From a virus, in the UHGV virus genome UHGV-0096816: a stretch of DNA of 18,606 nucleotides; one strand, given 5' to 3'. Positions 1-17,401 of this stretch are shown in pieces; within the stretch, counting starts at the first letter, position 1, and the number at the start of each line of letters is the position of its first letter. The notes beneath the pieces were generated by a model, which was given only the letters and a program-made list of their open reading frames with translations, made no database searches and was not told the DNA's origin. The translations under genes and the position numbers were made by a program.

Positions 1-34
1 GATACTCAGGGTCAAACTTTTATCAACCATATAA

Positions 35-1582
35 ATGAGTGGGATAAAGATGAGATTTAAGGTGCTGCCTGCGGGAAGTATGTGCTCTGTTGAACAATCT
101 AACTGTGCCTATTTAATTACTGATAATTGGGATGACTGGTTTGAATTTTCTACAATGTATACATTGGTTTATATAGATTCAAATAAGGATAAGAATATTA
201 TTGGTTCTACTAAAATTGGCCAATTGAATATGGCGAAAGGTCAAAGTAGACCAAGTATCCCTGAAGCTTTCGAAAAACTAGATGAGAGTTTTTTCTCCGT
301 TGGTCAAGATGATAGTTTTTACGAAGTGTTGAATGAACTAGGAGAAGATATCCGAAATGAAATATTATCATCGCTTAATGATATTGCTCTGAGTGAAGAT
401 ATATATAATAAAGCAATAAATGAGAGGGTCACTAGCATATCTCTTCTGAGATCCGTCAGCCATACATCTATTAAGGGACAGTTTCGTCGACTTGCGAACG
501 GAGGTGCTCGACTTTCAAAATATTCATTTTCATATAACTCACCAGTGATGAAAGGCACTGACTCTGACCGTATTAAGTTAAGTTTTGAAGTGATACCAGA
601 GAGCAATCCCCCAACAAATATTCATGTGCTAATTGGTCGGAATGGTGTTGGGAAAACGCATTTAATGAATAATATGATTAGTTCATTAATTGACGAAAAT
701 ACAACGCCAACAAAAGTCGGTGAATTTTCATCTAAAGATCAACTAGCTGGTGAGCTTTTCTCTAACGTAGTATCAGTCACTTTTAGCGCTTTTGATGAAA
801 CAGAACCTTTATCAGAAAAAAAAGATAAATCTACAGGTATACAGTTTTCATATGTGGGACTAAAAAGAGTAAAAAAAGGTGATGAGAAAAGTCTCCCGCC
901 CAAAAGCCCTGTTATATTGAAAAATGAATTCGTGAAAAGTATGCTTTCTTGTAAGGCAGGAGGGAAAATTGAACGTTGGAAAAGGGCTGTGGATAAGCTG
1001 GAGTCAGATCCAGTATTTGCTGACATTAATGTAGCATCAATATTGAATAGACAAGATGAAGATGAGTTTAAAGATATTGCAGGAAGAGTATTCAAAAATT
1101 TAAGTTCCGGGCACAAAATTGTATTGCTAACTATCACTAGACTTGTCGAGACAATGGAAGAAAGAAGCTTGGTTTTTTTAGATGAACCAGAAGCTCATCT
1201 CCATCCACCATTATTATCAGCTTTTGTAAGGTCTCTTTCTGATTTATTAATTAATAGGAATGCAGTATCTATAATAGCTACCCACTCTCCTGTAGTTCTC
1301 CAGGAAGTTCCTCGAAGCTGTACGTGGAAGTTGTGGCGTAGTGGCTACTTGTCTAAAGTAGAAAGGCTAGAAACAGAATCTTTCGGTGAAAATGTGGGTA
1401 TACTAACGAGGGAGGTATTTGGATTGGAAAATACCGACTCTGGATTCCATAATCTTCTTGACGATGCTGTAAATAAATTCGAAGATTACGATTCAGCTGT
1501 GCAAAATTTCAATGGGCAACTTGGAATTGAAGCTAGAGGTATTTTGCGGGCTTTGTTTTTAATTAAGAGAAACCAATCATGA
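35..1582 (+). CDS. ABC-type (SMC/RecF-like) ATPase with N-terminal extension; candidate defence ATPase (PtuA-like partner of the downstream HNH nuclease)
   Basis: 515-aa ORF. Walker A GRNGVGKT at about residue 201, signature-like LSSGHK at about 357, Walker B/D-loop LVFLDEPEAHLHP at about 379, H-loop-like IATHSP at about 414. About 190 aa of unassigned sequence precede Walker A. Stop overlaps the next start (ATGA). AT-rich. An alternative start at ATG 50 (MRFKV) is possible. Confidence 0.6.
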   Translation: MSGIKMRFKVLPAGSMCSVEQSNCAYLITDNWDDWFEFSTMYTLVYIDSNKDKNIIGSTKIGQLNMAKGQSRPSIPEAFEKLDESFFSVGQDDSFYEVLNELGEDIRNEILSSLNDIALSEDIYNKAINERVTSISLLRSVSHTSIKGQFRRLANGGARLSKYSFSYNSPVMKGTDSDRIKLSFEVIPESNPPTNIHVLIGRNGVGKTHLMNNMISSLIDENTTPTKVGEFSSKDQLAGELFSNVVSVTFSAFDETEPLSEKKDKSTGIQFSYVGLKRVKKGDEKSLPPKSPVILKNEFVKSMLSCKAGGKIERWKRAVDKLESDPVFADINVASILNRQDEDEFKDIAGRVFKNLSSGHKIVLLTITRLVETMEERSLVFLDEPEAHLHPPLLSAFVRSLSDLLINRNAVSIIATHSPVVLQEVPRSCTWKLWRSGYLSKVERLETESFGENVGILTREVFGLENTDSGFHNLLDDAVNKFEDYDSAVQNFNGQLGIEARGILRALFLIKRNQS

Positions 1583-2418
1583 AAAAACTCTTAAAACCGA
1601 ATGATAGTGCGTTGGATGTATTTAATGCATGCATTGATCGAGTTCGCGATGAAGATTTAAAGAGGAGGCTTATAGCATGTTCTCAAGAAATAGAAGATTC
1701 CTCAATAGAATTTGATGCAAAAGTATCAATTGCACAATTACATACAATTTTGCCTAAAGACAATGTTGCCACTGTTGTTACAGTTGACGAAATGAAGGTT
1801 GTCTATACAAGCAGAATGGCTAAGAAATTAGCCCCAGGGCGTATCTATTATGACAAGTTAATGTCACTTCCAGATCATGGAAGATGCCCACTATGTTCTC
1901 AAAGAGTAGTATCGACATTAGATCATCACTTACCTAAAGCACATTTTCCATCATTGGCTGTATCGCCTTTTAATCTTATACCAGCCTGTCAGGATTGTAA
2001 TAAAACAAAGAGCGAAGATATCCCAATTTGCTCAGAAGAAGAAACTTTGCACCCATATTACGATGATGTAGAAGCATTTGTTTGGGTTAAGGCAAAAATA
2101 CGGGAATCTATTCCTGTAGCGATAGAGTTTTATGTAGAGCCACCTGAAGATTGCCCCCCACTTTTAGCTAAACGTATGAAGTATCACTTTAAGGCATTTA
2201 AGTTGTCTGCTCTTTATGCATCACATGCAGCTGAAGAACTAGCGAGCATTGAATATATCGCAAAGAGAATTTACGATGGGGGGGGGAGTATCGAGTTAAA
2301 AAAATACTTGACTGAAACCGCAGCTGGAAAAAAATCGGTAAGCTTAAATTCTTGGCAATCCGCACTCTATAGTTGTCTCTCGGAAAATAACTGGTTTTGT
2401 GAGGTTAGATTTAGATAG
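1579..2418 (+). CDS. HNH-family endonuclease (PtuB-like), translationally coupled to the upstream ATPase
   Basis: 279-aa ORF with an HNH-type motif: CPLC ... DHHLPKAHFP ... NLIPACQDCNKTK (C-x2-C, D-H, N, C-x2-C). 4-nt ATGA overlap with the upstream ATPase. Confidence 0.65.
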   Translation: MKKLLKPNDSALDVFNACIDRVRDEDLKRRLIACSQEIEDSSIEFDAKVSIAQLHTILPKDNVATVVTVDEMKVVYTSRMAKKLAPGRIYYDKLMSLPDHGRCPLCSQRVVSTLDHHLPKAHFPSLAVSPFNLIPACQDCNKTKSEDIPICSEEETLHPYYDDVEAFVWVKAKIRESIPVAIEFYVEPPEDCPPLLAKRMKYHFKAFKLSALYASHAAEELASIEYIAKRIYDGGGSIELKKYLTETAAGKKSVSLNSWQSALYSCLSENNWFCEVRFR

Positions 2419-2423
2419 TAATA

Positions 2424-2475
2424 AAGACATTCAGCCAATATCGGGGAAAAGTCATTGGATGTCTTACTAATTTTC
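2424..2475 (+). terminator. possible weak intrinsic terminator after the ATPase-HNH operon
   Basis: Imperfect hairpin (aagacat/atgtctt 7 bp plus ccaat/attgg 5 bp, 14-nt loop) just after the HNH stop codon, followed by actaattttc. Confidence 0.3.
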
Positions 2476-2707
2476 TAGCTGTGACTGTGCCAAGTCAGTT
2501 TTTCGTTCACTGCGGACATTCAACCCATTTTGAAAGTCAATTTTGTGACGCTAACATTCCTAACAGTAGTCTTGCTGGCAATCTGATATAATCTGAGGTT
2601 TCGTTGGGATATATTTATTAAACACACTACGACTCACAGATTTCATCTATAGTCGGCATAATTAAAATAGCAATCTTAAAAAGTGCAGAAACAAGTCGCT
2701 TTTAACA

Positions 2708-3205
2708 TTAATGGTCAAGCCATAAATTATCTCTATTGAGTAGACTAATCTTTGTTGCATTTTTTGATGCTAGAGTTACACATTCTCCTTTATCAAACTC
2801 ATCCAAACTAACAAATACAAATTTCTTGCCATCTTTTTCTTTTGGAAATACCATGAAAATCACTTCGAACGTAAGTTCGCTATTTTTATTAATTAAAAAT
2901 TGCTTGAGTGCGCGATACTTACCTATTTCACACTCTGTGAGTGTAAAGGAGGTGCAGTTCTCTGTTGAATGATACTTTGCATCCAGAAGAATAAAGGTGT
3001 TACTATCAACTTTAATAATAAAATCGGGGCGTTTTCCCCCATATATTTTTAAACTTTTAGATAGGTCTGTTTTTCCTTGTTCGACATATACAAACTCCCA
3101 TTGGGAGTTTTCTAACCATTTAAGAGCATACTCTTCACCATCCTCGCCTGCGGATGTAGGACATTGTTTCCTTAGCTTTCTGCGAATTTCGTCTAAATGT
3201 GGCAT
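2708..3205 (-). CDS. hypothetical protein with PD-(D/E)xK-like nuclease motif
   Basis: 165-aa ORF. Motif arrangement E (GEEYA) ... RPDFII ... LLDAKY resembles the restriction-endonuclease-like fold signature. Upstream on the minus strand AAAGGGAATATAATTT precedes the ATG (RBS-like plus a TATAAT). AT-rich. Confidence 0.45.
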   Translation of the reverse strand: MPHLDEIRRKLRKQCPTSAGEDGEEYALKWLENSQWEFVYVEQGKTDLSKSLKIYGGKRPDFIIKVDSNTFILLDAKYHSTENCTSFTLTECEIGKYRALKQFLINKNSELTFEVIFMVFPKEKDGKKFVFVSLDEFDKGECVTLASKNATKISLLNRDNLWLDH

Positions 3206-3410
3206 AAATTATATTCCCTTTCATATGGTATATCATTATTATCGACATTATTTGATGATTCTTTAGCAAAATTTCAAAAGATTGGTCTAATATATATTCA
3301 GGCATTGCAGTTCACCATATTAGAAAACTCTGTTCCTGGCTCAAAGCGGACTGTTTGGTTCTTTTCCATAATGTTAAGAAAATCAAGATGGCGTTGAAAC
3401 GCTTAAATTT

Positions 3411-4538
3411 TTACAATGCTACTTTGCTCCAACCTTTCCCTCGGTCATCATGGTAACGATCGGTTTGCTGCTGGGTTTTATGGCCCAGTAACTTTCTGGT
3501 ATCAATCCCTTGTTCTTTGTAAAGACGCTCAGATAAAGATCTTTGTTCATGAAAAGTTGCTGGAGTTCCAGTACCCCAATCAATTTCTGCCAGATCACGT
3601 GCCTTGCTAAAGTTCATCGTTAGTGTATTAGCTTTTACCTGTGCGCCACGTTCAGCCTGTGATGTAGTACGGAAAAAATGCACTAAGTATGGGCTGACTG
3701 CGTAGTCACGGCAGCGAGCTACTACATCACGTAAACACCAGTTGATAGCATTCAAACGTAAAGAAAGAGGGATAGCGATTTTGCTCCCGGTCTTTTCCTG
3801 AATGACGTGAAGATGATCCTCCCAAATATCACTAAATTTCATTTTGGATATATCTCCTAAACGCTGCCCAGTGACCAAAGCTAGGAGCATGGCATTTCCC
3901 ATATAACGATGAGCGGCGTCTGCGATATCGAATATTTTTTTCCATTCTTCTAGGCTGAGGCGTTGACGGCTAATTTTCCTTCTGGGTTGCTTCGTTGCAA
4001 GAGCAGGGTTATACCCTGGTGGAACTTCGCCGTAATGCTGTGCTTCCTTAAACACATCGATCAATACAGACCTTACGACCTGGGCCATTCTAGGCTGTCC
4101 AGCAGAGATATACTCATCAAGTAATTGTGCTATATCTCTGACATCAACGGCTGATATCAACTTCAGTCCTGCTCGTTCCCTGAGCAAGGATACTGGTTTG
4201 GCTTTCTGTTTATAGGTGTTGAGCTTTATATCGCCACTTTTCAGTCTGTCTTCCTGGATTGCTTGATAGCGATCTAACCAGGTTGACGTTGTGATTGCTT
4301 TTCCTTTGCTGGTTGCGATCCTGTCACTGATAGCCAGAATCTGCCGGGTTCTTTGCTCAGCCAGGCGTGAATTTGCCTCAGTGGCAATAGCAATGGCTTC
4401 AGCTTCGTTTGTGCCTAAAGAATGAAACTTCCCGGTCACTGGATGTTTATATCGCCAATAGACTTTATTTACTTTTCTACTATAAAGCGGATACAAGTTC
4501 GGGACTGAAACATTATTTTTACGTGGTCTGGCTGCCAT
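3411..4538 (-). CDS. int: phage tyrosine integrase (lambda Int family)
   Basis: 375-aa ORF. N-terminus (PNLY..., TGK.. LG) and C-terminus LLGHKTQQQTDRYHDDRGKGWSKV parallel lambda Int (LLGHKSDTMASQYRDDRGREW), including the catalytic-Tyr region. 5' end overlaps the xis 3' end as in lambda. Confidence 0.9.
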   Translation of the reverse strand: MAARPRKNNVSVPNLYPLYSRKVNKVYWRYKHPVTGKFHSLGTNEAEAIAIATEANSRLAEQRTRQILAISDRIATSKGKAITTSTWLDRYQAIQEDRLKSGDIKLNTYKQKAKPVSLLRERAGLKLISAVDVRDIAQLLDEYISAGQPRMAQVVRSVLIDVFKEAQHYGEVPPGYNPALATKQPRRKISRQRLSLEEWKKIFDIADAAHRYMGNAMLLALVTGQRLGDISKMKFSDIWEDHLHVIQEKTGSKIAIPLSLRLNAINWCLRDVVARCRDYAVSPYLVHFFRTTSQAERGAQVKANTLTMNFSKARDLAEIDWGTGTPATFHEQRSLSERLYKEQGIDTRKLLGHKTQQQTDRYHDDRGKGWSKVAL

Positions 4539-4764
4539 TACTTAAAATCCTTTGTAGAATAATAGAATCATTTTTCTTGATGACAGGAGTAACTAATTCC
4601 CCAACTAACTCTGCGTCCTCACGCACTCGCCATAGTCGACCTTGTTTCATTGCCGGTGGACAAAATAAATTCTGCTTAGCATAACGACGCAATGTGGACA
4701 CGCTTGGAGGATTACTTCTGTATTTTTCCGCAGCCCATTCCTCAAGTGTCAGCATTTGAAGCAT
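4519..4764 (-). CDS. xis: excisionase (lambda Xis-like)
   Basis: MLQMLTLEEWAAEKYRSNPPSVSTLRRYAKQNLFCPPAMKQGRLW resembles lambda Xis (MYLTLQEWNARQRRPRSLETVRRWVRECRIFPPPVKDGREY). Start chosen at the ATG preceded by GAGG with 9-nt spacing; the ORF track begins 5 codons upstream. Confidence 0.75.
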   Translation of the reverse strand: MLQMLTLEEWAAEKYRSNPPSVSTLRRYAKQNLFCPPAMKQGRLWRVREDAELVGELVTPVIKKNDSIILQRILSNGSQTT

Positions 4765-4807
4765 TTTTGATAACCTCATTTCTTTTGCTACAAAACTATT
4801 TCACTAG

Positions 4808-5356
4808 TTAATTTCGCTGTCTGGATTGTTTATGCATCTTATGCAGCTCTTTAAAGCGTTCCATAAACATCCCGTAGGCATGGCCCGGTGCCAGTGGAAT
4901 CACGTTGAACATCTCTGTTGCCGGGATGCCTTCCAGTACAGGCCAGAAAGAGCCATCATCAAGCCCGAGATCGCGGCGTTCGGTTGCCAGCATGATGAGA
5001 TCGGCATATTTCACGGGCGTACTCATAACCGGGGGTAACCCGTATTTCTCACGGATTACGGCGTCTATTTTTTCTTCCATCTGTTTATAGTCAGGAAGAA
5101 GGCGTTTCAGTGGAGCGGGGATGTCCTGGCAATACACTTCTGTTGCATCATGCATTAACGCTTCAAAAGCAAATTCCTGCGGTACCAGTTGGCTGCAAAG
5201 AACCGCATGTTGGGCGACGCTGTAGAAGTGTGAAAGATGTCCTGCAAAGCGACAGATATTTGAAAGGGAAAACGCGATATCGTTAATAACGATATCGTCT
5301 TTATTTATCCTGTCATAATAAAAATGCTTCCCAGAAAAAGTTTTAATAAATGACAT
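4808..5356 (-). CDS. HD-domain phosphohydrolase (YfdR-like putative 5'-deoxynucleotidase)
   Basis: H...HD metal-binding motifs (HLSHFYSVAQHAVL; ALMHDATEVY). Start set at MSFIKT, preceded by GGAGAACAAA. The length (182 aa) is close to E. coli CPS-53 YfdR as I recall it; the family resemblance is from memory and was not searched. Confidence 0.7.
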   Translation of the reverse strand: MSFIKTFSGKHFYYDRINKDDIVINDIAFSLSNICRFAGHLSHFYSVAQHAVLCSQLVPQEFAFEALMHDATEVYCQDIPAPLKRLLPDYKQMEEKIDAVIREKYGLPPVMSTPVKYADLIMLATERRDLGLDDGSFWPVLEGIPATEMFNVIPLAPGHAYGMFMERFKELHKMHKQSRQRN

Positions 5357-5484
5357 TTTGTTCTCCACGTTATTTGCGCTGCACCGCACTGAATTCTGGT
5401 AAAAGGAAGCCCTCACCATCCGGCGATTATTGAGTTAATTACGTTTCCATAAATGCCCCCGCAGGGGCATTTGCAGTAATCAAA

Positions 5485-6309
5485 TCAGGCGGTGAAAGTA
5501 CCAATAAAGGTTTCTACTTTGCTGTCTTTGAATTTCTCAACAAGCAGATCGCGAAATTCGTTAGCCATTTCTTCCTGCACCGCCTCCAGCTGAATAATGC
5601 GCAGAACAAGTACAGGACGATCGCCAGTGATAATGCTGAGGCGTAATTTAAAAGAACGTTCTTTCAGACCTTCAAACGGAACGCATTTAAATTCAAATGC
5701 CACTGGCATAATGTCTTTGGTCTTCGCTTCGACAGACTCCATCAGGGAGCGTTTGCCGCTGAAGTCATTGTCTTCAAAATCAGCAGTCTGGTTCGCTTCA
5801 ATTGTGATTTTACGGATCGCCGCAGCCGCTTTGGTTGCCTGAATGGCGTCACCATTAGCATCAAAGCCCACAAGGTTGTCGGCCCAGTCTTCAATCCATT
5901 CTGCCAGTGATTTCTGGGAGTTACGCTCGCCGTGAACAGACAACAGAGCAGAGAACGGTGCTGTCTTTTTCAGTTTGAGAGTGGCGGTGTTATCTGCGTG
6001 GCCTGGTTCATCAATAGTACCCAGGTTAAGCACACTGACGGCACGCATATTATCAGCATCGATAAAGCAGCGGGTGCCTTCATCTGCAAGATCTTTAGAA
6101 TAACGGGTAAAGTCATCAATGCTGGCAGTGGAAAGCGCACCACGGAAACGGAAGCGATTTAAATTAAATTTTTCCAGGTCATGAATGCGGAAATTCTCAG
6201 GCAATGCCACAGCATCGGCACCAATCTTACTGATAATTTCATTAACACCCTGAGCAGAAATAAGGGCATGGATTTGATTAATTGCGGTTGCGTCTAAGTT
6301 CTGAGACAT
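5485..6309 (-). CDS. conserved prophage protein of unknown function (YfdQ-like by size and position)
   Basis: 274-aa ORF with a GAGGA RBS 8 nt upstream of the ATG; same strand and operon as the flanking genes. No catalytic motif recognised. Confidence 0.6.
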
Positions 6310-6374
6310 AATAAGTCCTCACTATATAAAGATATTCAGTGATGAGATAAATAATCAGTTAATTAAAAACGATA

Positions 6375-6737
6375 TTAACGACCTGCTGCGCGGAGTTTTC
6401 CGTCAGGTTCACCGGCAAGAGTCAGTAACTGTCCCTGGTCTTCCTGCAGAATAGTCAGGCGACCACCGCGATTGACATACATCGGCGTTTCGGTGGTGTC
6501 TTCTTCGGAAATTTTCCCGCGGTTAGTCGGGCGAACATATGAGAGTTTGTGTTTGATTTTCACACGGTTCTCATCAAATGGTTCGATTTCCAGGTTGAGT
6601 GAGACCTTACCTTTGGTTTTCGTGTTCATCACACCGGAAGCGACTTCACTGAGAACTGCGCCGATTTTGGTTTCAAATACGCCGCCGTCCAGCTCCCCGA
6701 TAAATGCCTGCACATCAGTACTGCGTTCGCTAGCCAT
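6375..6737 (-). CDS. hypothetical early-left protein (120 aa; YfdP-like by size and position)
   Basis: Start set at MASERSTD, preceded by GAGGAG about 8 nt upstream. The longer ORF in the track (to 7055) runs into GC-rich structured non-coding DNA without an RBS. Confidence 0.6.
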   Translation of the reverse strand: MASERSTDVQAFIGELDGGVFETKIGAVLSEVASGVMNTKTKGKVSLNLEIEPFDENRVKIKHKLSYVRPTNRGKISEEDTTETPMYVNRGGRLTILQEDQGQLLTLAGEPDGKLRAAGR

Positions 6738-6786
6738 TTTGCTGCTCCTCATCATATCGACCCTGCAAGGCCGATTAGTTTCTCCA

Positions 6787-6873
6787 CAAAACAGAGAAGA
6801 ACACCTGCGGTGGCAGCCGCCCGGATGGATTGGGTTATGAGCCCGTCGTCCGGTGATGCTCTTCTCTGTTTTG
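6787..6873 (-). ncRNA. structured leader element upstream of the early-left operon (long-range stem enclosing GC hairpins); function unknown
   Basis: caaaacagagaaga (6787-6800) is a perfect inverted repeat of tcttctctgttttg (6860-6873), with inner hairpins gcgg/ccgc and ccgga/tccgg. It lies 50-130 nt upstream of the RBS of the 120-aa gene on the minus-strand transcript. Confidence 0.35.
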
Positions 6874-7138
6874 TAAAAAGGACGGTACCAGCCGGAAGCA
6901 AGGGTACAAACTGGTACCGCCAGGACTACACACAGCATAAAGTTGTAGTGCCGGGTGCCTCCCGGTGCCTGGCGAAGGTTGCACACCAGGCGGGTGGGTA
7001 TCCACAGAAGGTCGACTGTCAGCCTCAACCTTAACCCGCGTGCGCTGAGCCGCATTCACCACAACGCTAAGGATTCTCTCTGGTTGAAAATACTTAGCTG
7101 TTATGTGCCTGCTTTTAGCCACATCAGGCGAGGTGGAC

Positions 7139-7190
7139 CTGGTTATTCCCCAACAACAAGGATTCGGTTAATCTGGTTATCCCCAACAAC
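7139..7190. repeat. two direct repeats CTGGTTAT(T)CCCCAACAAC with 34-bp periodicity, immediately upstream of the 144-aa plus-strand gene
   Basis: Repeat 1 at 7139-7157, repeat 2 at 7173-7190 (one T deleted). The second ends 15 nt before the ATG at 7206. Confidence 0.6.
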
Positions 7191-7205
7191 GCAAAAGGAA
7201 AAGAA

Positions 7206-7640
7206 ATGTCCGGTAATATCTATACGCTGTACAAATCCCACTGTGAAAATGTTGGAAAGTATCGGGGCATTGAAATCAGTGGGGTAGTGTCATCAGTCGA
7301 AATAAGCAAAGTTGAATCAAGGGCAACATTACTTACTCTTCTGGACCTTGTCTTACATGAGCACCGGAAGAAATTCGGCACTCCCTATAATCAGTTGAAT
7401 GGGAAAAAGGCTCTGGTTCACCTTATTCTGATGAAGCATCACTGGATGCCAAAACAGATTAATGAGATGAAATTTGATGAACTTCTTCTTTCAATTCAGG
7501 ATGAACTCACACTTGATAAAATAAGCGTAACCGCCCAGAAATTTTTAGATTATCGAGACTGGAGATCACAAATTCATCACTTTGATGATTTTGACGAAAA
7601 TGAATGGGATCCTAATTTGTCTGCACAATATCTAAAGTAA
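7206..7640 (+). CDS. hypothetical protein (144 aa), opposite-strand moron-like gene inside the early-left region
   Basis: ORF with AAAGGAAAAGAA RBS-like stretch before the ATG; opposite in orientation to the surrounding leftward operon; AT-rich. No recognisable motif. Confidence 0.5.
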   Translation: MSGNIYTLYKSHCENVGKYRGIEISGVVSSVEISKVESRATLLTLLDLVLHEHRKKFGTPYNQLNGKKALVHLILMKHHWMPKQINEMKFDELLLSIQDELTLDKISVTAQKFLDYRDWRSQIHHFDDFDENEWDPNLSAQYLK

Positions 7641-7818
7641 CATCCTGTGATAAAACCGTGATTTCCTGATCCAGTTTTTTTAAGGAGTCTATTGTTTCCT
7701 GTCGATAAGACAGCACTTCACGAAGCTGGTTTATAGCTGCCAGCTTCTTTGTCATCCACTCATAAATTTCCTCATCTGTGTAGCCAGGCGCGACGATTTT
7801 GGGTTCTGTTTTGTGCAT
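7612..7818 (-). CDS. hypothetical small protein (68 aa), first ORF downstream of the OL-like operators
   Basis: Strong RBS GAGGAGG 6 nt upstream of ATG (MHKTEPK...). Its 3' end overlaps the 3' end of the convergent 144-aa gene by 29 nt. Not Arg-rich, so not an obvious N analogue. Confidence 0.4.
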   Translation of the reverse strand: MHKTEPKIVAPGYTDEEIYEWMTKKLAAINQLREVLSYRQETIDSLKKLDQEITVLSQDVTLDIVQTN

Positions 7819-7876
7819 TTCACACCTCCTCAAGTTATCAGTTACTTGTTGATGGGGACCAGATTGTTAAAGAGCT

Positions 7877-7905
7877 AAGCGTCCTGTAGGGCGCTTTTTT
7901 GTTGC
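7877..7905 (+). terminator. intrinsic terminator-like hairpin followed by a T6 tract
   Basis: Stem agcgtcc / ggcgct (7 bp, one G-U pair) with loop tgta, then TTTTTTG; oriented for plus-strand transcripts approaching the immunity region. Confidence 0.45.
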
Positions 7906-8066
7906 TAACGAATCATCCTGGACTTCATATGCCCCAGGCGGCTACTTCGTGGGCGTCCTGCCTGTTCGTTTTTGACATTTACTGACTGCTTACGACACAT
8001 GCACCGTGTTGCAACCAGATTTTGTTGTAATCCTGTAGTTGGTCTGGAATAAAAGATAAAATTAAA

Positions 8067-8103
8067 TTGCGAGATATGCAAGTGATATTTGCGAGATATG
8101 CAA
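8067..8103. promoter_or_regulatory. OL-like operator pair: two exact copies of TTGCGAGATATGCAA, 22 bp centre to centre
   Basis: Exact 15-mers at 8067-8081 and 8089-8103, just downstream of the repressor gene's 3' end. The same half-site pattern recurs in the cI-cro intergenic region. Confidence 0.6.
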
Positions 8104-8157
8104 ATTTATAGGTAATGAAAAGCCACCTTTCGGTGGCCGATGGATGGGATATTGAGG

Positions 8158-8850
8158 TTAATTATGTCTCTTAAGGGTTTGCGACTGACTGATTAAGACC
8201 TTTCCAAAGACCATGAATCGGTGTTCGTTTTCGCTAGTAATTCCCCATTCACGGTAAATCTGGTTATCAGAAATCACCAGCAGTTTGTCAGGAATCATTT
8301 GAAGTCTTTTAACGTATATTTTGTCATCAAAACCAAAGACATATATACCATCACCATCAAACTGATTGATGCTGACATCAACGAAGATGAGATCTCCTGG
8401 CTCAATGGTTGGACACATACTGTCCCCACGAACGTTGATAACTTTGATGTGATTGGCTGGTCGTCCGCCGAACATTGATACAGCATTATCAGTTCTGTAT
8501 TCGATGGCATGAATCACATCAATGACATCACCGCCCTGGATAAGGCCATTTCCCGCACTGGCACTGATATCCAGCATTTCAATACGGAACACATCCTTCA
8601 CCTGCGCAACATCCTCATTATTACTGTTTTTATATACAGTATTACTTTTGTGGGCAGAGGTAAAGAGATCAGCAATATCAACACCTAAGCTCTTGGCAAT
8701 ATTACTCAGTGTTTGTTCGGTAAATTGTTTTTGCTTACCCGTTTCTAAGCGCGAGATGTTCGCCGCATCTACTCCTATCGCTTCAGCGAGATCGGCGATT
8801 TTCATGTTCTTCGCTTGGCGAAGTTGTCTGACTCGGTTTCCTATGTTCAT
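8158..8850 (-). CDS. CI-like prophage repressor (HTH_XRE + S24/LexA-type peptidase domain)
   Basis: N-terminal HTH (LRQAKNMKIADLAEAIGVDAANISRLETGK); C-terminal S24 motifs (VRGDSMCPTIEPGDLIFVD ... YVKRL). Divergent from the cro-like gene. Confidence 0.85.
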   Translation of the reverse strand: MNIGNRVRQLRQAKNMKIADLAEAIGVDAANISRLETGKQKQFTEQTLSNIAKSLGVDIADLFTSAHKSNTVYKNSNNEDVAQVKDVFRIEMLDISASAGNGLIQGGDVIDVIHAIEYRTDNAVSMFGGRPANHIKVINVRGDSMCPTIEPGDLIFVDVSINQFDGDGIYVFGFDDKIYVKRLQMIPDKLLVISDNQIYREWGITSENEHRFMVFGKVLISQSQTLKRHN

Positions 8851-8947
8851 GCGTTTATTACATTTCTTTATTGCGTGATAAGCAAATCAACTTGCGCAAA
8901 ATAATTGCGTGAAATAACATGCATAACGCGCAATATTTGGAGGACGT
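8851..8947. promoter_or_regulatory. OR-like divergent promoter/operator region between repressor and cro-like gene
   Basis: Contains TTGCGTGATAAGCAA (8871-8885), which shares the half-site pattern of the OL 15-mer, plus further TTGCG/CGCAA-containing imperfect sites. Precise -10/-35 elements not resolved. Confidence 0.55.
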
Positions 8948-9208
8948 ATGCAATCACCATTACGAAATGTGCGTAAGGCGCATGGTTTCACTTTGCAGCA
9001 TGTTGCTGCGGGTGTTCAAGTCAATCCAGCGACGTTGAGTCGTATTGAGAGGCTGGAGCAGATTCCATCTATCGAGCTTGCAGAACGTTTAGCCAATTTT
9101 TTTAAGGGTGAAGTCAGCGAAATGCAGATTCTTTATCCGGCACGTTTTCAATCTAGCCAAAACCAGAATGGGTTTAAACCACAGGAACAGGAGGTGAACC
9201 GTGGGTAA
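8948..9208 (+). CDS. Cro-like HTH transcriptional regulator
   Basis: 86-aa ORF divergent from the repressor; HTH-like segment FTLQHVAAGVQVNPATLSRIE. Confidence 0.7.
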   Translation: MQSPLRNVRKAHGFTLQHVAAGVQVNPATLSRIERLEQIPSIELAERLANFFKGEVSEMQILYPARFQSSQNQNGFKPQEQEVNRG

Positions 9209-9752
9209 GCATCACTGGAAAGTAGAAAAACAGCCTGAGTGGTACGTGAAAGCTGTCAGAAAAACTATCGCAGCGTTGCCGGGGGGGTACGCTGAAGCTG
9301 CTGACTGGCTGGATGTAACAGAGAACGCATTATTTAACCGCCTTCGTGCCGATGGCGATCAGATTTTCCCGCTGGGATGGGCAATGATTTTGCAACGTGC
9401 TGGTGGAACTCACTTCATTGCTGACGCTGTGGCGCAGTCTGCAAATGGCGTCTTTGTGTCTCTTCCTGATGTCGAGGATGTGGACAACGCCGATATCAAC
9501 CAACGCCTGCTGGAGGTCATTGAACAGATCGGCAGTTATTCAAAACAGATTCGTTCAGCAATTGAAGACGGTGTAGTGGAACCGCATGAGAAGACAGCAA
9601 TTAACGACGAGCTGTACCTCTCAATTTCGAAGCTGCAGGAGCATGCAGCACTGGTCTACAAAATTTTTTGCATTTCAGAAAGTAATGACGCCCGCGAGTG
9701 TGCAGCTCCGGGCGCCGTGGCGTGTCGTGACTGTGGAGAAACTAACGCATGA
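9201..9752 (+). CDS. early regulatory protein (CII-position; YmfL-like by size and position)
   Basis: GTG start preceded by GGAGG at 7-nt spacing; overlaps the cro-like stop. 183 aa. Function inferred from position only. Confidence 0.5.
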
Positions 9753-10087
9753 ACAGTTTAACAACACACTACCGTCGCTCGCAACTGATTGCACTTCCTG
9801 TACCGGGTGGAAAAGCGAAGGTGGAGTATTGCTATGCAGTGAATGTACCAGGTGACAGGGAAATTGTAACCCACAGCTTTGCAGAGTGGGCTGTGGGTGA
9901 TTTCAACAGGCAAAAGGAGACAGTCCTTTGCGACAAGTTAACCGCTGGTTCAAAGATCACTACGGAGTGCCCGTCAGAGTCATTCATTGGGAACCGGAAA
10001 CACAACGGGTTATCTACCTCCGCGAAGGCTATGAGCATGAGTGCTTCAGCCCGCTCGAACAGTTTCGTCGTAAATTCAGGGAAATAG
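9749..10087 (+). CDS. hypothetical protein (112 aa)
   Basis: ATGA start/stop overlap with the upstream gene suggests translational coupling. A competing ORF in another frame (9586..9855) makes this uncertain. Confidence 0.4.
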
Positions 10088-10096
10088 AGGTCGGTC

Positions 10097-11038
10097 ATGA
10101 GCACTAAATTAACCGGCTATGTATGGGATGGTTGCGCTGCGTCAGGCATGAAGTTATCCAGCGTGGCAATTATGGCCCGCCTGGCTGATTTCAGTAATGA
10201 CGAAGGTGTGTGCTGGCCATCAATTGAAACCATTGCCCGCCAGATTGGCGCGGGGATGAGCACCGTCAGAACGGCTATCGCACGGCTGGAAGCAGAAGGC
10301 TGGTTAACGCGTAAGGCGCGTCGCCAGGGTAACCGCAATGCGTCGAATGTTTATCAGCTTAACGTTGCGAAGCTTCAGGCAGCGGCATTTTCTCAACTGT
10401 CAGATTCTGACCCGTCAAAATCTGACGCATCAAAATCTGACCCGTCAAAATTTGATGCGTCGAAATCTGGCAAAAAAGCGGGTTTTCACCCGTCAGAATC
10501 TGGCGGGGATCCGTCAGTAAAATCAAAACATGATCCGTCAGATAAAAAACCTTCTCGTCCGGACGCTTCGCAACCGGACACGCAGACGGATGAACAGGAT
10601 TTTTTAACTCGCCATCCTGATGCGGTTGTATTCAGCCCTAAAAAGCGCCAGTGGGGAACGCAGGATGATTTGACCTGCGCACAGTGGTTCTGGAAAAAAA
10701 TCATCGCCCTGTACGAGCAGGCTGCCGAATGTGACGGCGAGGTGGTTCGTCCCAAAGAACCGAACTGGACAGCCTGGGCAAACGAAATTCGCCTGATGTG
10801 TGTGCAGGATGGTCGTACTCACAAACAAATCTGCGAGATGTACAGCCGCGTCAGCCGCGATCCGTTCTGGTGCCGTAACGTGCTCAGCCCGTCGAAGCTG
10901 CGGGAAAAATGGGATGAGCTTTCCCTGCGCTTATCACCGTCCGTCAGCACGTACACCGAAAAACGCGAAGACCCGTACTTCAAATCCAGTTACGACAACG
11001 TGGACTACAGCCAGATCCCGGCAGGATTCAGGGGGTGA
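10097..11038 (+). CDS. replication initiator (lambda O-like organiser with N-terminal winged-helix domain)
   Basis: N-terminal region GVCWPSIETIARQIGAGMSTVRTAIARLEAEGWL is typical of phage replication-initiator HTH domains. A repetitive acidic Ser/Asp/Lys linker is encoded by iteron-like DNA repeats. GAGG RBS before the ATG. Confidence 0.65.
   Translation: MSTKLTGYVWDGCAASGMKLSSVAIMARLADFSNDEGVCWPSIETIARQIGAGMSTVRTAIARLEAEGWLTRKARRQGNRNASNVYQLNVAKLQAAAFSQLSDSDPSKSDASKSDPSKFDASKSGKKAGFHPSESGGDPSVKSKHDPSDKKPSRPDASQPDTQTDEQDFLTRHPDAVVFSPKKRQWGTQDDLTCAQWFWKKIIALYEQAAECDGEVVRPKEPNWTAWANEIRLMCVQDGRTHKQICEMYSRVSRDPFWCRNVLSPSKLREKWDELSLRLSPSVSTYTEKREDPYFKSSYDNVDYSQIPAGFRG
10398..10545. repeat. iteron-like direct repeats (about 8 copies of a CGTCAAAATCTGAC-like unit) inside the O-like gene; putative origin of replication
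   Basis: Degenerate repeats of gtcagattctgac / cgtcaaaatctgac / catcaaaatctgac / cgtcaaaatttgatg / cgtcgaaatctgg / cgtcagaatctgg / ccgtcagtaaaatc / ccgtcagataaaaaac, as for ori-lambda within O. Confidence 0.55.
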
Positions 11039-11040
11039 TC

Positions 11041-11529
11041 ATGAGTCTTTTGAATGAAGTTCAGAAATTCATTGAAGCCCATCCGGGATGTACTTCCGGA
11101 GACATTGCGGATGCTTTTGCAGGTTACTCACGGCAGCGCGTTCTGCAGTCAGCAAGCAAGTTACGTCAGAGTGGGCGTGTGGCTCACCGTTGTGAAGGAG
11201 ATACACGCAGACATTTCCCGCGCCTGACTGAGAGAGCGCAGGAACCGGAACCACAACCAGTTCGAGAAACCAGACCTGTGCGCAATTTCTATGTCGGCAC
11301 TAACGATCCACGGGTGATTTTGTGCCTGACCCGCCAGGCTGAAGAACTGGAGTCCAGGGGCTTATACCGTCGTGCTGCAACCGTGTGGATGGCGGCATTC
11401 CGTGAAAGCCACTCCCAGCCAGAACGAAACAATTTTCTGGCGCGTCGTGAGCAGTGTTTACGGAAAAGCAGCAAGCGCGCTGTATCGGGTGATGAGTGGT
11501 ATCTGTCAGGGAATTACGTGGGGGCTTAA
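11041..11529 (+). CDS. hypothetical protein (163 aa)
   Basis: ATG preceded by AGGGGG RBS, 2 nt after the O-like stop. No motif recognised with confidence. Confidence 0.5.
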   Translation: MSLLNEVQKFIEAHPGCTSGDIADAFAGYSRQRVLQSASKLRQSGRVAHRCEGDTRRHFPRLTERAQEPEPQPVRETRPVRNFYVGTNDPRVILCLTRQAEELESRGLYRRAATVWMAAFRESHSQPERNNFLARREQCLRKSSKRAVSGDEWYLSGNYVGA

Positions 11530-12182
11530 TGAGTAATAAATATTACCAGGAGCTGGTGGAACTGCGGAACAAACCAGCCCATGAACTGAAGGAAGTGGGT
11601 GATCAGTGGCGCACGCCGGACAACATTTTCTGGGGAATTAACACCCTGTTTGGCCCGTTTGTTCTGGATCTGTTCACTGACGGTGATAACGCCAAATGTG
11701 CTGCGTATTACACGGCGGAAGACAACGCGCTGGCGCATGACTGGTCAGAACGTCTTGCGGAGCTTAAAGGGGCTGCCTTTGGTAATCCCCCATACAGCCG
11801 CGCCAGTCAGCATGAGGGGCAATACATCACCGGCATGCGTTACATCATGAAACATGCCAGTGCCATGCGTGATAAGGGTGGGCGCTATGTTTTCCTGATC
11901 AAAGCTGCCACCAGCGAAGTGTGGTGGCCGGAAGATGCGGACCATATTGCTTTTATTCGCGGGCGTATTGGTTTTGAACTGCCTGCCTGGTTTATCCCGA
12001 AGGATGAGAAGCAGGTGCCGACAGGCGCTTTCTTCGCTGGTGCTATTGCTGTTTTCGACAAGACCTGGAAGGGACCGGCAATCAGCTACATCGGGCGCGA
12101 TGAACTTGAGGCATGTGGTGAGGCGTTTCTGGTGCAGGTTCGCCAGCAGGCGGAAAAACTGGTCAGGGAGATGGCGGCATGA
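11529..12182 (+). CDS. phage Dam-type N6-adenine DNA methyltransferase
   Basis: Motif IV FGNPPYS (NPPY); size and layout typical of small phage orphan adenine methyltransferases. Start at MSNKYYQ overlapping the upstream stop (TAATG). Confidence 0.7.
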   Translation: MSNKYYQELVELRNKPAHELKEVGDQWRTPDNIFWGINTLFGPFVLDLFTDGDNAKCAAYYTAEDNALAHDWSERLAELKGAAFGNPPYSRASQHEGQYITGMRYIMKHASAMRDKGGRYVFLIKAATSEVWWPEDADHIAFIRGRIGFELPAWFIPKDEKQVPTGAFFAGAIAVFDKTWKGPAISYIGRDELEACGEAFLVQVRQQAEKLVREMAA

Positions 12183-12505
12183 CGACGTTAACTCAATGCC
12201 AGCAGCAGGTGCTGGATATGCTGATTTCTTACCAGAAAGAGCGTGGCTTTCCGCCAACCAATCAGGAGGTGGCAACCATGCTGGGATACCGTTCAGTGAA
12301 TGCAGCGGTAGAGCATCTTCGTGCACTGGAGAAAAAAGGCGTCATCACGATAAAGCGTGGCGTGGCCCGGGGGATAACGCTTCATACCGCGGTGAAGGAC
12401 GACGACAGCGAGGCGGTCGGGATTATCCGCGCACTGCTTGCCGGTGAGGAAAACGCCAGGCTGCGTGCAGCCCACTGGTTACATGAGAGGGGCCTGAAAG
12501 TATGA
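12179..12505 (+). CDS. LexA N-terminal-domain-like DNA-binding protein (no peptidase domain)
   Basis: LTQCQQQVLDMLISYQKERGFPPTNQEVATMLGYRSVNAAVEHLRALEKKGVITIKRGVARGITL aligns closely, by recall, with the E. coli LexA N-terminus ([65 protein letters not shown]). Confidence 0.7.
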   Translation: MTTLTQCQQQVLDMLISYQKERGFPPTNQEVATMLGYRSVNAAVEHLRALEKKGVITIKRGVARGITLHTAVKDDDSEAVGIIRALLAGEENARLRAAHWLHERGLKV

Positions 12506-12891
12506 AGCTGATCCTGCCTTTCCCGCCCAGCGTGAACACGTACTGGCGACACCCCAACAAAGGGGCGTTTGCTGGTAAGAGCCTGATAAGCGCGGCGGGG
12601 CGAAAATTCCAGAGCGCGGCGTGTGCAGCAATAGTTGAGCAGTTACGTCGTCTGCCGAAACCAACGTCGGCACCTGCTTCAGTGGAGATCGTGTTGTTTC
12701 CTCCGGATAAGCGGATCCGCGATCTGGACAACTATAACAAGGCGCTGTTTGACGCCCTGACCCACGCGGGTGTGTGGGAAGACGACAGACAGGTGAAAAG
12801 AATGCTGGTGGAGTGGGGACCGGTTATCCCGAAAGGGAAGGTCGAGATCACTATCAGTAAGTATGAGAAACCGGCGGGTGCAGCCGCCTGA
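12502..12891 (+). CDS. rusA: RusA-family Holliday junction resolvase
   Basis: N-terminal LPFPPSVNTYWRH and catalytic-region RDLDNYNKALFDALT motifs match RusA; 129 aa. Confidence 0.8.
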   Translation: MKLILPFPPSVNTYWRHPNKGAFAGKSLISAAGRKFQSAACAAIVEQLRRLPKPTSAPASVEIVLFPPDKRIRDLDNYNKALFDALTHAGVWEDDRQVKRMLVEWGPVIPKGKVEITISKYEKPAGAAA

Positions 12892-12910
12892 TTAAGAGGA
12901 GAAACGAAGT

Positions 12911-13720
12911 ATGAATAATCTGATGGTCATTGATGGTATTGAAGTTCGTCGTGATGCTTATGGGCGTTACAGCCTGAACGATCTGCATCGCGCAGCAGTA
13001 GCATCTGGTGCAAATGCCAGAACCAAGGAGCCGGGAAAGTTTCTTTCCAGCCAACAAACTGTTGAGCTTGTTCATGAATTGACCAACACCCAGAATTTGG
13101 GTGTTGACCCGGTGAGTGTGATTCATGGGGGAAATGAACGGGGAACTTATGTCTGCAAGGAACTGGTGTATGCCTATGCAATGTGGATCAGCCCGTCATT
13201 CCATCTGAAGGTGATCCGTACTTTCGACATGGTAACCAGCGCACCGGAAAAATTATCCGGACAGGCTGCTGACAAGATGCAGGCTGGTGTGATTCTGCTG
13301 GACTTTATGCGTCGGGAGTTAAACCTGTCTAACTCATCTGTGCTTTGTGCCTGTCAGAAACTCCAGGAGGCTGTTGGCTTACCGAATCTGGCACCGCGCT
13401 ATGCCATTGATGCTCCTGCTGATGCACACGATGGCTCAAGTCGCCCGACACTGTCACTGAGTGCACTGCTGAAACAGTATGGTATCCGCCTGACGGCTAA
13501 TCAGGCATATCACCAGATGGCGAAGCTGGGGATCGTTGAACAACGCGAACGATACAGTCGTACCGCGATTAACAACATCAAAAAATTCTGGTCGCTGACA
13601 GCGAAAGGCTGCATGTTCGGCAAGAACATCACCAGTCCCGCAAATCCGCGCGAGACGCAGCCGCATTTCTTCGAATCCCGATTCCCTGAGCTGTTAAAGC
13701 TGCTCGATACCGTTCATTGA
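12911..13720 (+). CDS. KilA-N domain protein (antirepressor-like)
   Basis: N-terminal pattern IDGIEVRRDAYGRYSLNDLHRAAVASGANARTKEPGKFL is consistent with the KilA-N/APSES-type fold; GGAG RBS. Confidence 0.55.
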   Translation: MNNLMVIDGIEVRRDAYGRYSLNDLHRAAVASGANARTKEPGKFLSSQQTVELVHELTNTQNLGVDPVSVIHGGNERGTYVCKELVYAYAMWISPSFHLKVIRTFDMVTSAPEKLSGQAADKMQAGVILLDFMRRELNLSNSSVLCACQKLQEAVGLPNLAPRYAIDAPADAHDGSSRPTLSLSALLKQYGIRLTANQAYHQMAKLGIVEQRERYSRTAINNIKKFWSLTAKGCMFGKNITSPANPRETQPHFFESRFPELLKLLDTVH

Positions 13721-13721
13721 G

Positions 13722-14717
13722 GTGACCGTGAGAGCACTACTGACCCCTGAAATTGCCCCACGTATGGGGATCGTATTGTTCAGACCAGGTTCAGAGCTGA
13801 TGCCCCTGTTTATGCAGGGGCGTGTCCTGCTGGAGCCTGAGCCGGAACGTTATTCATCTTTTGCCAGTGGTGCCGTTCCGGCGGCATCACAAACGCTGGC
13901 GGATGATCCTGCCGTTCGGGCCGTGTTCCGCAATGAGACAGTGATCCGTCGTGCTGGTGGGGTGGAATGTCTTGAAAGCTGGTTACTTCGTGAAAAAGGC
14001 TGCCAGTGGCCTCATTCCGACTGGCACAGCGAGAACATGACCACAATGCGACACGCTCCGGGCGCAATCCGTCTGTGCTGGCACTGCGATAACCAGCTGC
14101 GCGATCAGTTCACGGAACGGCTGGAATCAATGGCAACGGATAACTGTGCCCGCTGGATGTTGTCTGTTGTGCGTCGGGATCTCGGTTTTGATGATAGTCA
14201 CGTTGTGACAATGCCGGAACTGTGCTGGTGGCTGATTCGTAATGACTTGGCGGATGCCTTACCGGAAAGTGCAGCCCGTAAGGCACTGAGATTACCAAAG
14301 CCTGTTGTGCCGTCTGTCACCCGGGAAAGTGACCTTGTGCCTTCGGTTCCTGCCACCAGCATCATCCAGGATAAGGCAAAAAAGGTGCTGGCGCTGAAAG
14401 TGGATCCGGAGTCGCCGGAGTCTTTTATGTTACGCCCAAAACGTCGCCGCTGGGTTAATGAAAAGTACACGCGCTGGGTTAAGACACAGCCGTGTGCATG
14501 TTGTGGAAAGCCTGCTGATGATCCCCACCACCTGATAGGCCATGGTCAGGGTGGAATGGGTACAAAAGCGCATGACCTCTTTGTGTTGCCTTTGTGCAGA
14601 AAGCATCACGACGAGCTGCATGCGGATACCGTGGCATTTGAAGAGAAGTATGGTTCCCAGTTGGAGCTGATATTTCGTTTTATCGATCGTGCGCTGGCAA
14701 TTGGCGTGCTGGCCTGA
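13722..14717 (+). CDS. nin-region protein with C-terminal Cys/His-rich putative zinc-binding (DUF968-like) domain
   Basis: C-terminus CACCGKPADDPHHL ... LCRKHHDELH. GTG start as in the ORF track; an internal ATG start 14 codons downstream is an alternative. Confidence 0.5.
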   Translation: MTVRALLTPEIAPRMGIVLFRPGSELMPLFMQGRVLLEPEPERYSSFASGAVPAASQTLADDPAVRAVFRNETVIRRAGGVECLESWLLREKGCQWPHSDWHSENMTTMRHAPGAIRLCWHCDNQLRDQFTERLESMATDNCARWMLSVVRRDLGFDDSHVVTMPELCWWLIRNDLADALPESAARKALRLPKPVVPSVTRESDLVPSVPATSIIQDKAKKVLALKVDPESPESFMLRPKRRRWVNEKYTRWVKTQPCACCGKPADDPHHLIGHGQGGMGTKAHDLFVLPLCRKHHDELHADTVAFEEKYGSQLELIFRFIDRALAIGVLA

Positions 14718-14735
14718 TTTTTTCGGAGAAAGTTG

Positions 14736-15122
14736 ATGCGTAATATACAGATGATCCTTGAACGTTGGGGGGCATGGGCAGCGAGTGATAGCTCAGGAGT
14801 TGACTATTCGTCTATAGCTGCTGGGTTTAAGGGGCTTCTTCCATATACCAGAAAGACACGTCTAGCTTGTTCAGATAGTGATGCATTAATTATTGAAGGT
14901 AGCCTTGCTCTTCTTAAGAAGAGAAAACCGTACGAACATTCTTTGATTGTGGCTCATTACCTGTATGGCATCTCGAAAAGAAAGATCGCAAAGGCACGTA
15001 ATAAAGACGAAAAATTGATACGTATCGAGATACAGGTTGCTGAAGGTTTTATCGATGGCTGCCTAAGTATGCTGGATGTGAAACTTGAAATGGATGACTA
15101 CTCTGAGTCTCCTGTAGCATGA
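14736..15122 (+). CDS. late-gene antiterminator Q (phage-82/QuuD-like family)
   Basis: MRNIQMILERWGAWAA ... SSIAAGFKGLLP resembles the N-terminus of enterobacterial Q antiterminators as recalled. GGAGAAAG RBS; located upstream of the lysis genes. Confidence 0.65.
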   Translation: MRNIQMILERWGAWAASDSSGVDYSSIAAGFKGLLPYTRKTRLACSDSDALIIEGSLALLKKRKPYEHSLIVAHYLYGISKRKIAKARNKDEKLIRIEIQVAEGFIDGCLSMLDVKLEMDDYSESPVA

Positions 15123-16148: not shown

Positions 16149-16158
16149 AATCAACTCT

Positions 16159-17256: not shown

Positions 17257-17401
17257 AAGAAACCCTTTTTTGTATTTTTTTGTACTTTTTGAAGGCAATT
17301 TAGATAGTCCTTAACATACTAAATTAACGAACATATTTCATTAGCACGGTCCGCAAAAAGTGATGTATCGTGTTAAGAGTGGTTACTTCGCCACACAACT
17401 T

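Follow-up and report, generated by a model that had tools for sequence, protein, structure and literature searches.

A prophage-borne ATPase-HNH gene pair of the lambda Ea59/Ea31 family with Septu-like architecture and a conserved N-terminal domain

Identification of the gene pair as a member of the Ea59/Ea31 family

The viral genome UHGV-0096816, whose entire analysed stretch of 18,606 nucleotides is referred to here as the window, carries near its left end two overlapping genes which encode an ATPase of the ATP-binding cassette (ABC) type and an HNH protein. As judged by sequence comparison, this pair belongs to the known Ea59/Ea31 family of bacteriophage lambda, which corresponds to the candidate system PDC-M01 of PADLOC. 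With moderate confidence we regard it as a prophage-borne member of this family, i.e. as a two-protein, ATP-regulated nuclease of Septu-related architecture which most plausibly serves to defend the lysogen against superinfecting phages. A preliminary description of this DNA had pointed to the Septu-like combination of an ATPase with an HNH nuclease, whereas the affiliation with the lambda Ea59/Ea31 family had escaped it.

The relationship to Ea59 was found by a search of sequenced phages. According to BLASTP the ATPase shares 40% identity with lambda Ea59 (E = 1e-123, residues 1-504 aligned to 2-517) and the HNH protein 26% identity with lambda Ea31 (E = 2e-30, residues 1-273 aligned to 1-292). 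The comparison with profile models which the preliminary description had proposed assigns the pair to PDC-M01 as well. The PDC-M01A model PDLC04235 of PADLOC matches the ATPase with an E value of 2.9e-210 (over 1-506 of 510) and lambda Ea59 with 3.9e-201, while PDC-M01B matches the HNH protein with 1.7e-106; the lambda pair matches the PDC-M01A and PDC-M01B models in the same manner as the window pair. Among the PHROG families, phrog_8066 (522 positions, annotated as “unknown function”) covers the ATPase end to end (3.9e-221), and phrog_10378 (296 positions, annotated as “HNH endonuclease”) is matched by the HNH protein over positions 1-295 of 296 (1.6e-115).

In the lambda genome (NC_001416.1) the homologous genes are located as follows:

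25396-26973, ea59
24509-25399, ea31, overlapping ea59 by 4 nt at 25396-25399

Both pairs show the order ATPase then HNH protein, share the overlap of 4 nt and encode an ATPase with the same N-terminal domain. Both reside on a lambdoid phage, about 650-750 bp from the attachment (att) site, from which they read away, the distance between the attP core and the start of the lambda pair being about 750 bp. In contrast to the window pair, whose place is between att and int, in convergent orientation to the latter, the lambda pair is situated across attP from int, is co-directional with int and xis and belongs to the leftward early operon. Furthermore, ea47, which is located downstream of the lambda pair, has no counterpart in the window, and the sequences of both pairs have diverged substantially.

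Catalytic motifs and translational coupling

The features of the window pair are listed below (nucleotide positions of the window, residue numbers of the respective protein).

50..1582 (+), Ea59-like ABC-type ATPase gene, 510 amino acids, formal start of the open reading frame (ORF) at 35 possible; PADLOC PDC-M01A, phrog_8066
50..508 (+), N-terminal domain of the ATPase, about 153 amino acids; five β-strands followed by five helices; acidic, isoelectric point (pI) 4.7
509..1579 (+), ABC ATPase head of the AAA_21/AAA_15 type, as assigned from Pfam, motifs, Foldseek and the secondary structure of the model
635-658, Walker A motif GRNGVGKT
1100-1117, signature motif LSSGHK
1169-1192, Walker B motif LVFLDEPE, which includes the catalytic glutamate
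1277-1291, H-loop ATHSP
1579..1582 (+), ATGA start/stop overlap (translational coupling)
1579..2418 (+), Ea31-like HNH nuclease gene, 279 amino acids; PADLOC PDC-M01B, phrog_10378
1885-2001, zinc-finger HNH (H-N-N) core CPLC...DH...N...CQDCN, with C103-x2-C106...D115-H116...N132...C137-x2-C140-N141

The ORF list contains both reading frames, 35..1582 (+) and 1579..2418 (+), which have the ATGA at 1579-1582 in common, so that the coordinates and the overlap of 4 nt given in the preliminary description are confirmed; likewise, the Walker A, signature, Walker B and HNH motifs are found where it had placed them. The length of 515 amino acids which it had assigned to the ATPase is correct for the ORF but probably not for the protein. 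Most likely, translation starts at the ATG at position 50, yielding 510 amino acids, since the ATG at position 35 lacks a Shine-Dalgarno sequence, while that at position 50 is preceded by GGGAT, and since all homologues in the family alignment as well as RefSeq entry WP_001211403.1 begin at the latter. Two residue numberings are consequently in use for the ATPase, with the Walker A lysine being K202 in the 510-residue and K207 in the 515-residue numbering.

The C-terminal two-thirds of the ATPase match Pfam AAA_21 (5.4e-20, 73 bits at a cut-off of 27) and AAA_15 (1.1e-9, 38.8 bits at a cut-off of 32.1). In the AlphaFold model of the full-length protein (predicted local distance difference test, pLDDT, 85.8) the secondary structure of the head comprises a short helical insert at residues ~292-354 (515-residue numbering) and conserved C-terminal helices. 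The ATPase motifs are invariant across phyla in the family alignments. The HNH protein scores above the gathering threshold of Pfam HNH (8.7e-5), and its catalytic and zinc-binding residues are invariant in 28 sequences, in agreement with the HNH assignment of the preliminary description; the flanks of this core (residues 1-95 and 153-279) are specific to the family. All catalytic motifs of both proteins are intact.

A housekeeping ABC ATPase, be it RecF, RecN, an SMC protein or a transporter subunit, was considered and rejected because the respective scores are far below their cut-offs. Such a placement, which the preliminary description had named as the outcome that would speak against its own reading, is found for none of the NCBIfam models: transporter models reach 13-22 bits at cut-offs of 130-700. 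In Pfam, ABC_tran (24.1 at a cut-off of 25) and SMC_N (14.4 at a cut-off of 40) both remain below threshold. No permease gene was found beside the pair, either among the ORFs of the window or in the RefSeq context.

The N-terminal domain of the ATPase

The Walker A motif is indeed preceded by about 200 residues, as had been stated in the preliminary description. Yet the additional domain is smaller than this. In the full-length model, strands 163-168, 181-186 and 196-200 represent the usual β-strands ahead of the P-loop of an ABC protein. As the last ~40 of the 200 residues thus belong to the normal ABC head, the true extra domain comprises about 153 amino acids, namely ORF residues 6-158, which correspond to residues 1-153 in the 510-residue protein. 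Prediction of its structure, which the preliminary description had suggested, yields the five strands and five helices mentioned above, and modelling of the isolated domain results in a pLDDT of 93.8 and a predicted template modelling score of 0.88; the domain is accordingly predicted with high confidence to fold autonomously. It has no match in Pfam, and a search of BFVD gave no match at E ≤ 1e-3.

The term “atypical”, previously applied to this extension, proved inappropriate, since the domain is an invariant hallmark of the family and present in lambda Ea59. When 1.84 billion cluster representatives were scanned in full, 1,525 proteins carrying it were retrieved. Within the best 150 of these 1,525 the domain is always located at or near the N-terminus, the proteins being about 500-550 amino acids long or shorter, in which case they are probably partial. 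An alignment of 79 sequences including that of lambda reveals W27, D29, T35, G52, K55, G85, Y91, D111 and R134 (510-residue numbering) as invariant or near-invariant, and in the same alignment the mean conservation of the domain (0.47-0.49) equals that of the N-lobe of the ATPase (0.49). Being so strongly constrained, the N-terminal domain is functional. Its acidity argues against plain DNA binding.

Two further PDC-M01A models of PADLOC deviate from this layout. In PDLC04240 (639 positions) the N-terminal domain is found at profile positions 173-285, implying a subfamily with about 170 additional residues at the front, while PDLC04236 (388 positions) lacks the domain, its first position corresponding to residue ~132; in each case this may reflect either a true variant or a mis-called start.

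A possible functional analogy is offered by retron PtuA, in which an N-terminal extension touches the sensing module. In retron Ec78 the extension of PtuA, which is absent from stand-alone PtuA, contacts the sensor module composed of reverse transcriptase (RT) and non-coding RNA (ncRNA), its first helix contacting both RT and ncRNA (PMC12819146). We would like to note that the helix ahead of the ABC head of the Ea59-type proteins (kGQFrRLAkGGarLSrykF, profile positions ~142-161) aligns with residues 2-21 of Ec78 PtuA, with a domain score of -1 bit, which is not significant and may be due to chance. On the basis of this alignment the Ec78 PtuA extension and the end of the Ea59-type N-terminal domain may be related.

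Relationship to Septu and other ATPase-nuclease systems

The preliminary description had left it open whether the pair represents a divergent Septu or a distinct ATPase-nuclease system. Of these options the second one is the better, although the architecture is Septu-like. As in Septu, an ATPase of the AAA_15/AAA_21 ABC class and, downstream of it, an HNH protein constitute a two-gene module which occurs in defence islands and on mobile elements. One PADLOC model of the Septu ATPase PtuA, PDLC00282, matches the window ATPase from end to end, N-terminal domain included (5e-195), so that PADLOC has this subfamily among its PtuA models; the remaining PtuA models match the C-terminal third of the ATPase only (1e-13 to 1e-22). 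When the full-length model is compared with the PDB by Foldseek, the top matches are PtuA chains, i.e. those of retron Eco7/Ec78, retron Ec83 and E. coli Septu (8EEA/8EE4), with E values of 3e-9 to 3e-6, template modelling scores of 0.3-0.4 and about 12% identity. Similarly, the family profile retrieves PtuA from the PDB at 1.8e-9, confined to the region from the signature to the H-loop. In addition, another study reported gene sets to which PADLOC had given the Septu and the PDC-M01 label at once (PMC11811056).

These double calls, the structural matches and the full-length match of PDLC00282 would be expected if the pair were a canonical Septu that is merely divergent in sequence, with the same assembly and substrate as E. 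coli Septu and with the N-terminal domain as passive decoration. We nevertheless regard this explanation as quite improbable. The NCBIfam PtuA model NF041760 reaches 37 bits only, compared to a cut-off of 500. PtuB is an HNH nuclease of the TIGR02646 family which binds PtuA via a helical C-terminal domain. The window HNH protein shares the HNH chemistry but has no match to TIGR02646 of NCBIfam at E ≤ 1; solved PtuB chains are matched by the HNH-family profile with E values of 0.23-0.49, over ~45 residues of the HNH core only, and in a three-piece PADLOC scan its N- and C-terminal flanks match PDC-M01B models exclusively, PtuB models being absent from the matches even at E ≤ 10. Moreover, Walker A lysine and Walker B aspartate are separated by 176 residues in the window ATPase, whereas K43 and D316 of PtuA from Septu Ec-B88 are 273 residues apart (PMC13096335); this spacing is about 100 residues shorter in the window ATPase, which indicates a much shorter arm between the lobes. 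Canonical PtuA has its Walker A motif at about residue 43 and does not contain the N-terminal domain, in contrast to the window protein with its Walker A lysine at position 202, and conservation of this domain to the level of the catalytic lobe does not fit a passive role. Membership in canonical Septu is rejected on account of the HNH partner and of the domain layout with Walker A behind a domain of 153 amino acids. Sequence comparison therefore describes a module which is Septu-like in architecture and whose ATPase core is of common ancestry with PtuA, but which is not a strict Septu and is best filed as Ea59/Ea31 (PDC-M01).

Weak PADLOC matches to AriA (8.7e-19) and AbiLi (3.1e-13) cover the region of the signature and Walker B motifs and are far inferior to the PDC-M01 and PtuA scores. 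PARIS (AriA/AriB), Gabija (GajA), the OLD family and AbiL have in common with the window pair that an ATPase of the same ABC superfamily controls a nuclease. Their nucleases, however, are of the Toprim or DUF4435 type, either fused or acting in trans, and neither an HNH partner nor the N-terminal domain is present.

Family size, gene linkage and neighbourhoods

Among 8,000 candidates examined, at least 7,888 are homologous to the ATPase at E ≤ 1e-5, and 876 homologues of the HNH protein were found. Numbers of this size (more than 7,800 and 876, respectively) exclude chance ORFs. The ATPase family is uniform, with lengths of about 505-520 amino acids and 55-60% identity between phyla. Gene linkage was assessed in 80 related loci from reference genomes of at least ten phyla. 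An Ea31-like gene follows directly downstream on the same strand in all 78 loci for which sequence downstream of the ATPase gene is available, the other two loci ending at a contig edge. Linkage of the two genes is hence obligate. Regarding the 76 measurable junctions, an overlap of 4 nt (-4 nt) is the commonest with 21 loci, and -1 nt comes second with 18. A conserved third gene is not present in the nine annotated neighbourhoods.

The neighbours are often defence genes. In Desulfosporosinus the pair is preceded by GAPS4 and followed by Wadjet JetABC, in Vibrio parahaemolyticus it resides on an smpB-integrase island together with HsdR and GmrSD, and in a genome of the Bacteroidota it stands beside another AAA_21 protein, a KAP NTPase and AbiEii. 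The Lacibacter pair is located near a PycTM gene, that of Marinobacter in an islet bounded by an integrase and that of Carboxylicivirga on a mobile element. A prophage of Providencia carries the pair at the end of a lambda-like early-left operon in the order kil-erf-ssb-xis-int followed by the pair. In the Vibrio parahaemolyticus loci L006/L007 (7021-8991) a gene for a HATPase_c/HATPase_c_3 protein of 656 amino acids ends 10 nt ahead of the Ea59-like gene; it is not found beside the pair in other taxa and may belong to a neighbouring system or represent a lineage-specific third component.

A homologue is present on 82 plasmid records. The occurrence on many plasmids and integrative elements would also be expected of a selfish or addiction module, i.e. 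a toxin-antitoxin-like nuclease, or a restriction-like nuclease devoid of a modification partner, which stabilises its element and has no anti-phage role. A weak match of the ATPase to TIGR04435 (“restriction system-associated AAA ATPase”, 43 bits) and the destruction of one of three E. coli copies by IS1, which is consistent with a cost to the host, point in the same direction. We consider such a module very improbable, since no methyltransferase gene or antitoxin-like third gene is conserved beside the pair, 49 of the 82 plasmid records are non-mobilizable, many copies are chromosomal, and the match to TIGR04435 is far below the cut-off of 300 bits.

The disrupted copy is that of E. coli X14-3 (NZ_CP084055.1; locus L090, 1550-3858). 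Here, an IS1 element is inserted into the ATPase gene just past the N-terminal domain, which splits it into a “hypothetical protein” of 180 and an “AAA family ATPase” of 338 amino acids and inactivates this copy, while a second IS1 stands in place of the remaining prophage.

Location within the prophage

Identical DNA is contained in only three of 5,426 complete E. coli genomes. RefSeq annotates the gene order in E. coli 23CRST035 as icd, the pair, a hypothetical gene, intE, xisE ... pinE, mcrA and a remnant of the icd 3' end. The 3' end of icd is duplicated at the two ends of the prophage, its attL copy starting some 600 bp left of the first window nucleotide, so that the pair is cargo inside an e14-like lambdoid prophage integrated at icd and lies between attL and int. 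Mapping of the att site, by which the preliminary description had intended to distinguish phage cargo from a host island, thus decides in favour of cargo. Its statement that the pair is found at the 3' end of the integrase gene holds, but the pair is not located beyond the prophage. The left end of the latter is marked by two genes:

3411..4538 (-), lambda-type tyrosine integrase, intE-like (Pfam Arm-DNA-bind_1 and Phage_integrase), convergent with the pair
4519-4779, xis

The AT-rich block noted earlier around the pair is borne out by a GC content of 0.36 over positions 1-3400 compared to 0.49 over 3401-15000. In the e14 element of K-12, the same slot between attL and int carries ymfD, ymfE and the abortive-infection peptidase gene lit. 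As this slot holds lit in K-12 and the pair in the present prophage, it constitutes a variable cargo position which is already known for an exclusion gene. The pair is preceded by a strong icd terminator. After this, 88-115 nt to the left of window position 1, comes the sole promoter-like site, TTGACA-16-TATTTT, in which a TG precedes the -10 element.

The position of the pair bears on the main competing explanation, according to which it encodes a nuclease that benefits the phage during lytic growth or induction by degrading host or competitor DNA, by processing recombination or replication intermediates or by counteracting host defences. It would then have an accessory early function comparable to that of the other b-region and early-left genes of lambda. 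In lambda, ea59 and ea31 are found in the leftward early unit downstream of int and att, and in the Providencia prophage the pair is co-directional with the early genes as described above. As is the case for accessory early genes, plaques form without either lambda gene: ea47, ea31 and ea59 are non-essential genes of the b region which have been replaced in lambda engineering (PMC9674246), and ea59 and ea31 were dispensable in a CRISPR interference (CRISPRi) screen, whose table labels ea59 as “ATP-dependent endonuclease” (PMC10695390). The same table gives plating efficiencies of 13 and 17 upon knock-down of ea59 and of about 1.2 for ea31 (PMC10695390). Such values above 1 for ea59 hint that the gene is a burden on the phage and not a requirement, and if they are real rather than noise, expression of ea59 is costly to lambda under the conditions of that screen.

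In spite of these points, we deem a lytic function unlikely. Unlike in lambda and Providencia, the window pair is convergent with int and xis and hence out of reach of the leftward early transcript. Furthermore, most members of the family are encoded on chromosomal islands and plasmids without any phage, so that their function cannot be tied to a lytic programme, and defence genes are frequent among their neighbours.

Functional considerations

Since its orientation bars transcription from the leftward early promoter, a role of the pair in the service of the lysogen appears most plausible to us, and the module would then represent moron-like, AT-rich cargo directed against superinfecting phages. 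By analogy to PtuA-PtuB, the ABC ATPase would oligomerise via its nucleotide-binding heads and C-terminal helices and hold the HNH partner in a complex, in which binding and hydrolysis of ATP, for which all motifs are intact, would gate the nuclease. The acidic N-terminal domain may form the surface for regulation or sensing; its ligand, made during infection, would most likely be a protein or another molecule that is not DNA. Benchimol, Lucko and Becker (J Biol Chem, 1982) reportedly purified a lambda-specified ATP-dependent endonuclease which needs both gene products. Once triggered, the HNH subunit would cut nucleic acid, namely DNA, as is said of this lambda enzyme, or possibly tRNA or single-stranded DNA as in Septu and retron-Septu. 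PtuAB has been reported to cut tRNA-Tyr and, according to a review (PMC13434031), single-stranded DNA. As a consequence of cleavage, the competing phage would be stopped or the infected cell killed.

Several points weigh against this reading. The lambda pair, whose products are “Ea” early proteins, is part of the delayed-early leftward operon, and such expression is no less compatible with a function in the lytic cycle than with one in the lysogen. Within the searchable literature no anti-phage phenotype is reported for any member of the Ea59/Ea31 family, and PDC-M01 has the status of a candidate only; likewise, this literature contains no paper which links ea59 to Septu or to defence. The Septu mechanism may not be transferable to the pair because the likeness is limited to the ATPase core in the case of PtuA and to the HNH core in the case of PtuB. 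With respect to a promoter of its own, the count of promoter-like sites does not exceed the expectation from shuffled sequence. Finally, the sensor role ascribed to the N-terminal domain is suggested by analogy and by the acidity of the domain only.

A more far-reaching proposal, which we consider possible but doubtful, is that the Ea59/Ea31 modules, including that of lambda, form a distinct and widespread system of anti-phage defence or competition between phages. In such a system a PtuA-like ATPase would be run not by the ATP level or a retron but by a built-in acidic N-terminal sensor of new fold, which, on detecting a protein or small molecule made by the phage, would free the HNH nuclease.

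Further genes of the window

The remainder of the window constitutes a lambdoid early region which encodes a CI-like S24 repressor, a CII-like protein, an O-like replication protein, RusA, a Q-like antiterminator, a holin and an endolysin. Between the HNH gene and int, within the same AT-rich block, an ORF at 2708-3205 (-) encodes a protein of 165 amino acids which matches phrog_28481 (unknown function) over its full length. It has no match in Pfam or PADLOC and is not kept beside the pair in other taxa; probably it represents separate cargo.

A second AT-rich block (GC 0.40) contains three co-directional ORFs of 379, 142 and 211 amino acids at 15098-17298 (-). It is situated between the genes of the Q-like antiterminator (14733-15122) and of the holin (starting at 17575) and endolysin (starting at 17905), which is a classic slot for morons in lambdoid phages. 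The three proteins have no Pfam match and belong to PHROGs of unknown function (phrog_12777, phrog_11490 and phrog_9664), and the protein of 211 amino acids shows a weak PADLOC match to PDC-S54 (6.8e-6). The block is a candidate for a second cargo or defence module.

Implications

The copy present in the window is in itself ordinary, being one further copy of a very common two-gene module. It exposes, however, a link to lambda ea59 and ea31, which are removed as a matter of routine, being regarded as “non-essential b-region” filler, when lambda is engineered. The family to which these two genes belong counts more than 7,800 database matches, is of Septu-like architecture and is listed as a defence candidate only (PDC-M01); its N-terminal domain is strongly conserved and has no structural relative. 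Owing to the ease of lambda genetics, the role of ea59 and ea31 as well as the ligand of this domain are directly testable. If the proposed function were true, the class of ATPase-nuclease immune systems would gain a new sensor domain, lambda genes which have been unexplained for decades would be provided with a function, and the b-region deletions of engineered lambda vectors would be seen differently.

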